From: Octopus sinensis
Taxonomy: Eukaryota
Reading direction: 5' to 3'
Length of the DNA: 64,000 nt
NCBI RefSeq assembly: GCF_006345805.1
Contig: NC_043006.1
Span: 682,001-746,000 of the forward strand
The notes under the pieces are model-generated. The model worked only from the letters and a program-made list of their open reading frames with translations, made no database searches and had not been told where the DNA came from. Numbering within the stretch: position 1 is the first letter of the stretch; each line of letters starts with the position of its first letter. Shown in pieces: positions 7,487 through 59,742 of this stretch. The translations under genes and the position numbers were made by a program.

Positions 7487-7769
7487 TCTCTCTCTATATA
7501 AAGCTGAAGTTGTCTGTGTATGGCAGGTTTGGTAGCCTTCAACTAACACTATCTCCTTCGAGACCCTGCGGCGCAAGTTGACCAAAATTGAGAGTATGAT
7601 AGAAGAAGGCTTGCTCTTCTTTCCGTAGAAGAAAAAAAATTCAAATCAGACCATGTTAACACCAAAAATTATTTACATCAAAAAGGTGCTTTTTTTCTAT
7701 GAAAATCCCTATTTTTTATGATTTTTTTGGCTGCTGTGTCGCCATTTTTAAGTGTATTTCAACCAGTTG
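7487..7769 (+). mobile_element. Helitron 5' fragment
   Basis: A|TCTCTCTCTATATAAAG start matching the 5' end of the Helitron at 11711; truncated where the CRE fragment begins. Confidence 0.6.
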
Positions 7770-8846
7770 AGTATCCGCATGGCGCGCAAAGCGACCAGAA
7801 TTCAGGCGGCAAGAAAGGCCATGGAGGCCTGTGGAGTCGAGGAGCCTTCCACAACGACAGGTCAAACCCGTGCATAAGTCAGCTCCCACTCTGAGGGCAA
7901 GGGAGACACGAAGTTCATCCAAGCTGAGTAGGCCACCAACATTAGTCATAAGGATGGCATCAATCCAGTCATCGGAGTATTTGGCGCTAGCGACAGAAAG
8001 CGGAACCTTGAAAACTGGTCCGACTGGATGAAGAAGGAATCGAAGATGGCCTTCGAAAGTATGTTGTCTCTCGCTCTCTGATTCCGACAGTCCTTCACCT
8101 TTTCAGGAGCAGACAAGCCCAGTTCCCGCCAGCGTTGGAGAGCTTCACCCAATTCCCTGTTGGAACAGGTCCATGTTGGAGAGGAGCGGATGTTGCTCAC
8201 CAGGGTGAACCAGGCGTGGGTGGAGGAAAGGAAGCAGGGGAGAGAGAGGGACGAACACTTACGAAGACCAAGACCTCCAAATCGCTTGGACAATGCAGCC
8301 TGATCGCGGGACGTTGGAGAAAGTCTGGCATTGACTAGGCATTCGAGTTTTTCAAAGATTAGGTTGTCGAAGCGTTGGAGGCACGATGGGAATCGGTAAG
8401 ATGAGCTGACTCTGAGTAAATATAGAAGCTTAGGGATCGAGAGGTAATTCCTTGATGGGTCTCGATAGCTTCAATATTTTTCCGCAATTGCTCAAGGGCA
8501 ACCACCTTCGACTGGAAGATGGGCTCAAAGGCAAAGTCAGTGATAGGGGCACCTAGAGAGCACCAAACCGATGGGGGAGGGACTGCAATAGAAGGGAAGG
8601 ACTCTGCAAAACGGTCAATAGTTGGTTGATGTTGAGAAGCCGAGTGGTTGAAGATCCAGAGCTCACATTTGGAGCTGTTTACTTGGAGACCCCGGCGACC
8701 AAACCCCCTAATGGCGAGAACACTATCTGGAGGTCCCCACAAACAAGCATCGTCGGGAAACCAGACGTTGAAGTCTAGCTAGACTCCCATCTTGGTGATG
8801 TCATCTATGCCCAGTGCGAACAGATCGGGCTCGATTGGGTCACCCT
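7770..8846 (-). mobile_element. CRE-clade non-LTR retrotransposon fragment (RT C-terminal half + CCHC knuckle), frameshifted
   Basis: GDPIEPDLFALGIDD...FNVWFPDDACL (QGDPLGPLLF...WYLDD), GLQVNSSKCEL, FGGLGLR...LPCFLSS, CRCGRLLDSTGLHGLSC...RFARH; stops and frameshifts across ORFs 8359-8742, 7946-8293, 7716-7949. Confidence 0.85.
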
Positions 8847-50013: not shown

Positions 50014-50300
50014 TCAGACTTGCTGCAGCTCTGTTTGATGGTGACCCAATGGATGTCCTCTACCTCCGCCACCCCTCCTACACTGATTCTGGTTGCTACT
50101 TCCCATGCAAAGAGTGCAGCAGATAGATGTGGAAGACTCTCGGACAATATCATCAAGACTCATACAAAGGGCTGCGGCAAAAAAGAATATAGTTCCCCCC
50201 CATCCGAGACCATAGCCCGTTCCGTAGTGATGGGATAACAGCTTTAAGTCATGTTCTATGGCAACAGGGAATATTATCAGTGCTACCGTCGTGCTGAGAG
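50014..50300 (-). CDS. PMP22/claudin-superfamily tetraspan protein (TMEM47/PERP/VAB-9-like), last coding exon
   Basis: Acceptor ttccttccAG at 50301-50302; phase 1 matches the upstream exon; (A)LSTTVALIIFPV...HYGTGYGLGWGGTIFFFAAALC...TELQQV*. TM3, the GYGLxWG motif and TM4 are typical of TMEM47/PERP. Confidence 0.88.
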
Positions 50301-56742: not shown

Positions 56743-56920
56743 ATATAAATTAGAAAAAAACCACCTTTTATCAATTTAATAATGAAAAATTAAATTATGC
56801 CATTTAGAAAAATTACATATTATAGAAAGATTAAGTATAAGATAAAACATATAATGATAATTAAGTAATGTGCAAAATAATTTTTCATTATTGAATTGAT
56901 AAAAGGTGTTTTAATTTATA
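56743..56920. repeat. AT-rich inverted repeat (about 45-bp arms) flanked by (TA)n
   Basis: tataaatta...caccttttatcaatt(t)aataatgaaaaatta / taatttttcattattgaattgataaaaggtg...taatttata. Confidence 0.8.
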
Positions 56921-56937
56921 TATATATATATATATAT

Positions 56938-57378
56938 ATATAAGCGGGATCAGCCATCTGAATGTGGCTAGGGACAGGGCGGGGTGGTGGGGGTGTTACT
57001 GATGCATTTAGCCCCAGGCGACTATAGACGTCACTAGAAGAGCCGACACCATCACGGTGTCCTTGCTGGCCTGCAAAGGGAGATCAGCCTCCCCGAAGAT
57101 ACGGATGCTACACACGGACCGGTTTCGAGGTAATCGCCTCTCGTCAGCGCATGGCAAGCACCGTTCTTCATTGAGGGACTTCCTGTACAGGCCAGATAAA
57201 TATAGAAACCGGTCCATGATGGTGTCGGCTCTTCTAGTGACGTCTATAGTCGCCTGGGGCTAAATGCATCAGTAACACCCCCACCACCCCGCCCTGTCCC
57301 TAGCCACATTCAGATGGCTGATCCCGCTTATATTAAAGAGCAGTTACTGTTTATACCTTGCTCAGAGATTTATTATTG

Positions 57379-57380
<2 letters not shown>
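56938..57380. mobile_element. Penelope-like pseudo-LTR element: perfect 117-bp inverted repeats (56938-57054, 57217-57333), 162-nt spacer, about 45-nt one-sided tail
   Basis: Arms checked base by base as exact reverse complements; spacer holds a hammerhead; inserted in (TA)n. Confidence 0.8.
57111..57153 (-). ncRNA. Minimal type I hammerhead ribozyme
   Basis: CAUGCG-CUGACGA-GAGG(CGAUUA)CCUC-GAAA-CCGG-UC|CGUGUG: complete catalytic core, 4-bp stem II, palindromic stem III (ACCGGU), GUC cleavage triplet, 6-bp stem I with two G-U pairs. Confidence 0.85.
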
Positions 57381-57423
<43 letters not shown>

Positions 57424-57889
57424 TATATTTTGTGAAATTTGATTTAGTATTTCTAAATTGAATTTTTCCCTGTAAGTTTGGAATAATATTCCCTCATATT
57501 ATTACTCTTATATATATATATATATTATCATCATCATTTAGCGTCCGCTTTCCATGCTAGCATGGGTTGGACGGTTCAACTGGGGGTCTGTGAAGCCAGA
57601 AGGCTGCATCAGGCCCAGTCTGATCTGGCAGTGTTTCTACGGCTGGATGCCCTTCCTAATGCCAACCACTCCGTGAGTGTAGTGGGAGCTTTTTACATAT
57701 ATCTATATACATACATATGTCCAACCCATTGGCAGCATGGAAAAAGGACATTAAATGATAAGGATGAGGATGAACAATTGTTACTTATTCACAACAGTGG
57801 TTATGTATTGTGGTTTCTGTCTTATTGAATCTTTATCTTCTTCTTGTTTCAGTCATGCTGGGGCACTGGCTTACTCTTTTTTTACTCTT

Positions 57890-58418: not shown

Positions 58419-59592
58419 CATAAAAGAACTTGTAGTTCAATGAATCAACTGTAGGACTTATTATTAAGCATAGTACTCATTCTGTTGGTCTTTTTGCTGA
58501 ACTGCTAAGTTAGAAGGACTTAAACACACCAATACCAGTTATCAAGTGGTGGGGGACAAGCACTGACACACACACACACAAACACACCCAACGGACTTCT
58601 TTCAGTTTCCATCTACCAAATCTATGCAATAGCCTTGGGTTGGCCCAAGGCTATTGCAGAAAACACATGCCCAAGGTACCATGCTGTGGTACTGAACCTG
58701 GAACTGTATGGTTGGGAGCAAGCTTCTTACCACACAGCCATACCTTTCCAGTCTTTGCTAAAAACTTTTACCTTACTTATCTTCCCATCTCCACTACAAA
58801 TTCTTCAAAATTGTCTTTCTGTACTGTAATAAATTCCATAAAAATAATGGTTTCTAGAACAGCTGATATGATTTAAATGATACAATAGAGAAAATATTTG
58901 AGTGTTGTGACGAAGTTGATATAAATTATAGAAATGACTTTTACCTGAAATTTTGTCATGCCACAAGTTGTTGTCAACAAAGTTTTATTTGAGAAATTTG
59001 GTTAGAATTCCTCTGTTTTTAATTTTCCTATTGCTTTAAGGTAACTTTGATAGACTTAGCCACATTTATGAGTGTTGTCAAAGCAGTACATGTTGTTGCA
59101 GTTGTTATTGTTTAGTTTCAGGCCAGTCTTGACTGAACCCACCTGTGACTAAAGGTATTCCAGCTGTGACCATCCCACTTGATATACTACATACTGGACT
59201 ACATTATCCAACATGTCTTTCTCTTTTTTTTCAAGCAGGAAGGTGTGATATGAAGGGAATTCAGCTGCTATTTTTAGCAGATTGTGTGATCAGGTCACAC
59301 TCTCACACTCTTCTGTAAAGTACATGCAAAGGCAGTCCTTGCAGCTAATCTAGTTGAATTTGCTACCACTAGGGCTGTGAACTTAGTAAAACACATAAGT
59401 CTCCATAGACAATAGGATTTGGCATTTTTTTCTGTGTACGCCTCATGACTTATTTTAGTTTAGGTTTAAATTGATTCAGGGTCCTACATGTTAAGTGTAG
59501 CATTTTATTGGGAAGCCTGGAAGACCAAGGATTATACTGGAACACAAATGAATCCTAAGCAAAACAAAATAAAACGTAAATCAAATACTTAC

Positions 59593-59742
59593 CACATATA
59601 AGAAATATTTCACCAGCAGAGTGGTAATAATATATCTTCTTCGGCAACGGGGTGGTCAGCACACCACATATCGATAAAACTGCAGCTAAAGCACCAAAAG
59701 ATGCGGCAAACATCATCAAGCCAAGGACAGCGTTCTGCCAAT
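59593..59742 (-). CDS. PMP22/claudin-superfamily (TMEM47/PERP-like) internal coding exon, 150 nt
   Basis: Acceptor ctcttcatAG, donor G|GTAAGT, phase 1/1; xWQNAVLGLMMFAASFGALAAVLSICGVLTTPLPKKIYYYHSAGEIFLIC(A) joins in frame to 50300 across a 9292-nt intron. The WQ.A...L start of TM2 is typical. Upstream exon(s) not identified, probably beyond 64000. Confidence 0.88.

Follow-up and report, generated by a model that had tools for sequence, protein, structure and literature searches.

A head-to-head insertion of a 360-nt hammerhead repeat in an octopus intron, likely pasted into a TA run by Penelope-type enzymes

The element and its intronic setting

The window analysed here, which comprises 64,000 nucleotides of the Octopus sinensis contig NC_043006.1 (positions 682,001 to 746,000), contains a minus-strand gene whose product is a 243-aa claudin-family protein (PF00822), which, over a query of 96 aa, matches at 100% identity a record that bears the label Octopus vulgaris. 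The four exons of this gene map to the minus strand; and since exon 3 (59593-59741, amino acids 99-148 of the protein, with a GT donor at 59592) and the last coding exon (50014-50300, with an AG acceptor at 50302-50301) bound the last intron, of 9.3 kb, the element described below lies within that intron and is sense to the pre-mRNA; an intronic, sense position had been assigned to it in an earlier note on this DNA. The protein (P0001) is of the PMP22/claudin family, and its source name, "endoglucanase 4-like", is probably a misannotation. At 7716-8778 on the minus strand are broken frames, which by eye we take to be retrotransposon reverse transcriptase-like; no protein match to a Penelope-like element (PLE) was found within the window.

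The element has a GC content of 0.52 and a CpG observed/expected ratio of 0.70, as compared with 0.37 and 0.36 in one 5-kb flank and 0.39 and 0.49 in the other, so that the enrichment previously claimed holds on both sides. Its long arm (56938-57206, minus strand) corresponds to positions 93-360 of a 360-nt retrozyme unit, is 5'-truncated, and stops at what we shall call the main fixed end. The short arm (57217-57333, plus strand) is the 3' end of the unit in the opposite orientation and, as the earlier note had seen, is the exact reverse complement over 117 nt of the left repeat copy at 56938-57054; no further exact extension is possible, and the pair reaches 120 nt if one mismatch is allowed. 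A one-sided tail of 48 nt (57333-57380, plus strand) follows, consisting of unit positions 1-48 and stopping at a second fixed end. Between the arms lies the inversion junction (57205-57216, plus strand), where unit positions 173-183 are joined to the long arm through a 2-nt overlap. In the 11 nt at 57205-57215 a piece of the ribozyme core occurs for a second time, in inverted orientation (GAAACCGGTCC); this dead remnant had been overlooked, and when the sequence is read against the unit, 60 nt are seen to have been lost after it, between CCGTG repeats, with one G>A change. In terms of the natural unit, the copy thus contains positions 93-360 in one orientation, and 173-183, the 60-nt deletion, 242-360, and 1-48 in the other.

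Insertion into (TA)n, also claimed before, is evident from the TA runs at 56914-56941 on the left and 57379-57419 on the right. That TA run lies between older AT-rich repeat pieces at 56749-56912 and 57416-57515, the former being a remnant, itself head-to-head, that resembles at 75-82% the 3' end of a PLE family with reverse transcriptase (RT) and GIY-YIG domains (loci L267-L296), and the latter being present also in L131, L144, and others.

The hammerhead motif and its predicted folding

On the minus strand of the long arm, at 57106-57160, we recognized a type I hammerhead motif of the C3-G8 variant (core 57147-57117) from its sequence together with covariation. Stem I is formed by CAUGCG (57153-57148) and CGUGUG (57116-57111), and is followed by CUGACGA (57147-57141), a stem II of GAGG/CCUC (57140-57127), GAAA (57126-57123), the stem III palindrome ACCGGU (57123-57118), and C17 at 57117; the full core, the palindrome, and the cleavage between 57117 and 57116 claimed earlier are therefore all upheld, the last as a prediction. 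The minimal form found in the pseudo-LTRs (pLTRs) of autonomous PLEs (PMC4209133), to which the earlier note had referred, does not apply: with six base pairs in helix I and four in helix II, the geometry is canonical, as in non-LTR retrozymes. The Rfam scans that had been suggested returned no hammerhead match, which null result we do not count as evidence against the motif because the motif covaries. In a structure survey of 26 of the 48 distinct motifs, picked to span the families, 93.8% of the cells of the hammerhead fold were paired and seven pairs had changed on both sides, versus none to two in slid controls, so that the stem covariation looked for among genomic copies was indeed seen, the covarying cells stemming from a few events between families. 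Compensatory changes in the core and stems thus show long-term selection on the predicted ribozyme.

Stem III varies among copies and stays palindromic (ACCGGU, ACUCGAGU, ACCCGGGU, or ACUGCAGU), each of the four palindromes being predicted to form a stable self-duplex, as would be expected for cleavage as a dimer (described in PMC4209133 and PMC7229834). The core pair 3-8 varies as well: among 94 segments from 59 insertions it was C-G in 50, U-A in 24, C·A in 18, A·A in one, and U·G in one, and in a hand count of the 100 genome matches listed out of 293 it was U-A in 59, C-G in 34, C·A in six, and U·G in one. The C3·A8 mismatch lineage is present in at least 12 insertions, whose spread suggests that efficient cleavage may be unneeded for movement and that an uncut multimer could then serve as template. 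The requirement of C3-G8 for cleavage holds also as regards G8A. With other substitutions that requirement was demonstrated in PMC11167929, and the U3-A8 variant is known from Schistosoma PLEs (PMC4209133). In a 46-row tree, the U-A copies are basal, along with a sister family, while the C·A copies and two C-G groups form a clade (94/99) whose internal fork the tree leaves open; the order from C·A to C-G is therefore not established, and decay of a CpG in C-G copies could have given rise to C·A. The window copy belongs to a young seven-member C-G group with an end branch of 0.008, in keeping with the youth attributed to it.

As to folding, the motif caps a predicted rod of ~130 nt (57066-57195, minus strand) that extends helix I and holds the ribozyme at its tip (z -4.7; equalled in 0 of 200 shuffles). 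The lowest-energy predicted fold nevertheless conceals the core, at -62.7 versus -51.3 to -45.4 kcal/mol for active-like folds modelled without tertiary contacts. In intron 1 of the same gene we found a sister-family copy (L178, 782-1106, minus strand), likewise sense to the pre-mRNA, which copy we considered as a dimer partner and rejected, its palindrome being a different one (ACCCGGGU) and its stem II decayed. The window copy is therefore predicted to cut the pre-mRNA poorly, having a single ribozyme, a stem III of only one or two pairs, a core hidden in the predicted fold, and an incompatible second copy. Axolotl monomers with a weak stem III cut poorly, at 6% in an hour; and even among dimers predicted from Xenopus retrozymes, eight of nine failed to cleave (bioRxiv 2026.07.22.740005). 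We consider the intronic copy likely to be a passenger whose arms, by prediction, form a 120-bp double-stranded hairpin on either strand, and this single copy is most likely neutral. The long hairpin pictured earlier, in which the ribozyme occupies the loop, fits what this insertion formed, but not the mobile RNA, since the hairpin is the by-product of one insertion. Each head-to-head copy would nevertheless provide a perfect double-stranded RNA hairpin in whichever strand is transcribed, here within an intron. Such hairpins could feed A-to-I editing in octopus.

The 360-nt unit, its insertions, and the competing readings

A genome search gave 193 matches from 40 of 2140 candidates scored, many of them 360 bp apart; loci L022 and L007 contain 360-nt units head-to-tail, and such tandem arrays reach ~3.7 units. 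The unit contains no protein and no LTR layout, its predicted cut site falls after position 182, and its size in tandem is within the 150-450-bp range of non-LTR retrozymes. An exact pattern for the family core had 293 matches in the genome (reversed control, 0) and a pattern for the tail had 324 (control, 0), from 100 of which, as listed, 84 tail loci were examined. At least three sister families have the tail in common, their identity to the window copy being 41-55% where the two can be aligned. The mobile unit is thus a protein-free, 360-nt non-LTR retrozyme: what had been described as a non-coding, ribozyme-bearing member of a family stands, whereas the MITE-shaped unit of ~440 bp does not, the unit being 360 nt and often in tandem.

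Contigs of three sequencing runs, whose status as RNA is a guess, hold pieces of the unit, although such contigs cannot indicate strand, ends, or circles. The ribozyme region was found in contigs of runs whose codes stand for several organisms (C, D, and E besides A and B), and the family therefore likely extends beyond one species. Two further observations concern related repeats. At L022 (1602-1799), contigs in two runs omit 196 nt that include the ribozyme, a hint that the unit has a shorter variant that lacks the ribozyme; and at L141 (5700-6300, minus strand) there is another tandem hammerhead repeat with a spacing of ~400 nt, a U3-A8 core, and the palindrome ACAUGU, which resembles the family profile weakly (E 2e-10).

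For the anatomy of the insertions, we kept by script 73 distinct insertions of the window family, after excluding those that ran off the edge of a locus and those with less than 88% identity, one local duplicate pair being counted twice among the 73. Since the loci had been chosen for their resemblance to the window copy, unit, or tail, the shares of tailed and inverted copies given here are biased upward, a bias that cannot account for the absence of two-tailed copies. Fifty of the insertions were head-to-head, 22 one-directional, and one complex. In 44 of the 50, one outer end lay at unit position 355-360 and the other at 43-50; the remainder comprised four with a tail plus a damaged end, one with two main ends, and one with a main plus a damaged end. 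A single tail, of 43-50 nt, was therefore present in 48 of the 50, and two tails in none. The inner breakpoints, by contrast with these fixed ends, were dispersed round the unit, and a junction was repeated only in the local duplicate pair. The family-wide check that had been proposed consequently found hundreds of copies, most of those surveyed with inverted arms, but not a constant layout, in that each insertion has a new junction. TA runs flanked 42 insertions on both sides, 18 on one side, and 13 on neither (60 of 73 on at least one side), and six of the 13 non-TA insertions (L005, L006, L009, L049, L153, and L156) had clear target duplications of 11-12 bp. The inverted, 5'-truncated copies with head-to-head arms and the insertion ends are a Penelope signature, as the earlier note had proposed for the inversion and one-sided tail.

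These same data bear on two readings of the window copy by itself. In that copy alone, perfect inverted arms flanked by TA have the appearance of a MITE, i.e., of an element that derives from a DNA transposon, has long inverted repeats at its ends, and inserts at TA; the copies surveyed, however, measure 91-1513 bp (median 586, with only five of the 73 at 430-455 bp) and have variable centres, tandem units, a one-sided tail, and 11-12-bp duplications, so that neither a constant length, nor fixed inverted repeats, nor a short fixed target duplication exists, and we regard the MITE reading as refuted by the survey and as having next to no probability. Equally improbable is a fold-back artefact of reads or assembly: although no contig in four runs bridged the window junction, the short arm has a deletion, a point change, and a tail of its own, and the layout is common to 50 insertions, some of them with target duplications.

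We consequently consider it probable that a non-LTR retrozyme, namely a hammerhead repeat of 360 nt without coding capacity, inserted recently and head-to-head at this place in the window, and that a PLE acting in trans likely supplied the reverse transcriptase and the endonuclease that pasted it into the TA run. By the mechanism that we propose, tandem copies would be transcribed, and the ribozyme, predicted to act as a dimer via its palindromic stem III, would cut the multimers into units, which might then be ligated to circles; a borrowed PLE enzyme would nick the target strands 11-12 bp apart, and the two target 3' ends would then be primed on the RNA at different places, namely the main site for one and a site ~45 nt downstream for the other, which offset would give the tail; both cDNAs would extend beyond the ribozyme site and for more than a unit length, halt at random, and be joined, so as to leave mirror arms with a new centre in each insertion.

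With respect to the template, 67 of 98 arms reach position 200 and 64 of those 67 run past the cut site, while 27 of 88 arms are longer than one unit. Because the arms pass the cut site and exceed one unit, the linear self-cut monomer is not the template, which must be either circular or a multimer left uncut. Insertion itself appears to generate the tandem units. The core scrap at the window junction had given us the idea that inversion points gather at the cut site, for which we found no support, there being no excess of arm ends just 3' of the cut (positions 183-193: five versus 2.9 expected, P 0.17). Minor alleles were shared in 289 of 326 instances (89%) between inverted arms and in 162 of 191 (85%) between tandem units of one insertion, sharing between different insertions being 13%; such sharing within insertions is what would be seen if each event drew on a single type of template. 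A nearest-neighbour distance test for a common template was uninformative, the within-locus distance not being below that to the nearest other locus.

With respect to priming, the tail arm was shorter than the other in 30 of the 44 main-plus-tail insertions and longer in 14 (3 tail only), and the two arm lengths were uncorrelated (rho 0.18). A fold-back copy of the first cDNA needs a tail arm that contains the other arm; the tail arm being mostly the shorter, we infer that two separate priming events fit better. A purified PLE protein is reported to nick both strands of AT-rich DNA and to start at two internal RNA sites bounding the tail (PMC11167929).

If, alternatively, the same element and Penelope-type enzyme used an uncut linear multimer as template and made the inverted arm by self-priming or a template switch, the ribozyme would be dispensable for movement. 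Ribozyme mutants did in fact leave insertion unaffected in vitro, where uncut RNA was the main substrate (PMC11167929), and self-priming has been proposed for PLE inversions (PMC3846280); the spread of the C3·A8 lineage and the disregard of the arms for the cut site are also in favour of this alternative. Nevertheless, the selection on the putative ribozyme referred to above argues against it, and so do a tail arm that, being shorter in most of those 44 insertions, cannot simply template the other arm, a tail that is not copyable from an arm without one, and the lack of any junction inherited by daughter copies, in view of which we judge it rather unlikely. A bolder form of our own proposal, to which we give somewhat less than an even chance, is that a single circular RNA with the ribozyme would serve to prime both nicked strands, at two sites offset from each other and strictly one per end, and would be copied all the way round; that the family would constitute a cephalopod superfamily whose insertions record the building of mirror structures by Penelope-type enzymes; and that its subfamilies would keep, within the active site of the hammerhead, the compensatory path U3-A8, C3·A8, C3-G8.

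The copies might also be stumps, left by 5' truncation of an autonomous PLE in which the 360-nt unit serves as the pLTR. Most PLE insertions are described as lacking their 5' part and as having this kind of inversion and tail (PMC8557442); and, as happens in the pLTRs of PLEs, a short frame begins at an ATG close to the end of the unit and runs through the tail. Every long arm, however, passes from the tail into the next unit and never into an ORF, in the sister families likewise, and no ORF-linked copy was found in 140 PLE loci or beside the tail and family loci, which makes this reading quite improbable. ORFs of PLEs that encode both RT and GIY-YIG domains do exist in the genome, several of them intact (775-883 aa), and in one PLE family the 3' region includes a U3-A8 hammerhead of the minimal form. 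Among the 140 PLE-ORF loci searched (50 GIY-YIG loci plus 90 loci from three more PLE lineages, out of thousands of candidates), we found no autonomous element with the unit or tail in common, such as the earlier note had proposed to look for; the matches to the family profile there were separate nested insertions, as read directly in L123, L129, and L141 and judged from orientation in the others. Nor was an autonomous element found beside the tail and family loci examined, or an RT plus GIY-YIG ORF in the unit or in phase with it, so that the link to PLEs is drawn from the insertion anatomy. The search also brought to light a young autonomous PLE family with copies ~99% alike (L131 1142-5979, L132-L136, and L140), in which a 479-aa upstream frame overlaps a 781-aa RT plus GIY-YIG frame, a CxxxxCxxC motif precedes the nuclease, and a minimal U3-A8 hammerhead with the palindrome ACAUGU lies near the 3' end; and a further lineage (L238-L266) with a conserved minimal U3-A8 hammerhead-like motif, of stem III AAUU, ~600-800 nt past the ORF in 20 of the 30 loci listed.

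Comparison with known systems

Non-LTR retrozymes, their proposed PLE origin, inverted pLTRs with tails, and two internal RT start sites are already published in the sources that we cite. Our literature searches, which covered cephalopod hammerhead elements as well as the inversions and tails of retrozymes, retrieved no description of this family; the main text of the O. vulgaris repeat paper (PMC13282606) does not contain the words "hammerhead" or "ribozyme". An element that measures 360 nt, has two fixed ends, varies naturally in its core, and can be read in hundreds of insertions constitutes a compact substrate for examining how animal retrozymes move and how the inversions and tails of PLEs are formed, both of which questions are described as open; and the U3-A8, C3·A8, and C3-G8 subfamilies would, if the bolder form of our proposal is true, be a natural test of the need of cleavage for movement.

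The metazoan non-LTR retrozymes, with units of 350-390 bp in mussel and 330 and 350 bp in axolotl (Cervera and de la Peña 2020, PMC7229834), resemble the octopus family in the non-coding tandem unit of ~360 nt with one canonical type I hammerhead per unit, the self-paired RNA (z -4.35), and target duplications of more than 4 bp, the weak palindromic helix III being like that of the axolotl HHR_Amex1. The octopus insertions differ in being short, dispersed (up to ~4 units), mostly head-to-head, and limited by two fixed ends, and the family is known here from DNA, whereas the retrozyme class is expressed as circles; the word "inverted" is absent from the main text of PMC7229834. With the endonuclease-bearing PLEs, as they are described in PMC3846280, PMC8557442, and PMC11167929, the family has in common an inverted 5'-truncated copy with a one-sided tail, AT-rich or (TA)n targets, target duplications of ~10 bp, a hammerhead in the repeat, and the U3-A8 variant; unlike those elements, the octopus unit has no ORF, a canonical rather than a minimal ribozyme, and no matching autonomous element among those found, and its tail measures 43-50 nt as against the 30-40 bp described for PLEs. 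Finally, the vertebrate retrozymes have been concluded to be non-autonomous PLE derivatives (Li, Clavereau, Pollet, bioRxiv 10.64898/2026.07.22.740005), the same origin as that proposed here; that conclusion, as presented there, is based on co-occurrence and pLTR homology, includes no mollusc, and favours local tandem growth, whereas in the octopus the basis is the ends of the insertions themselves.
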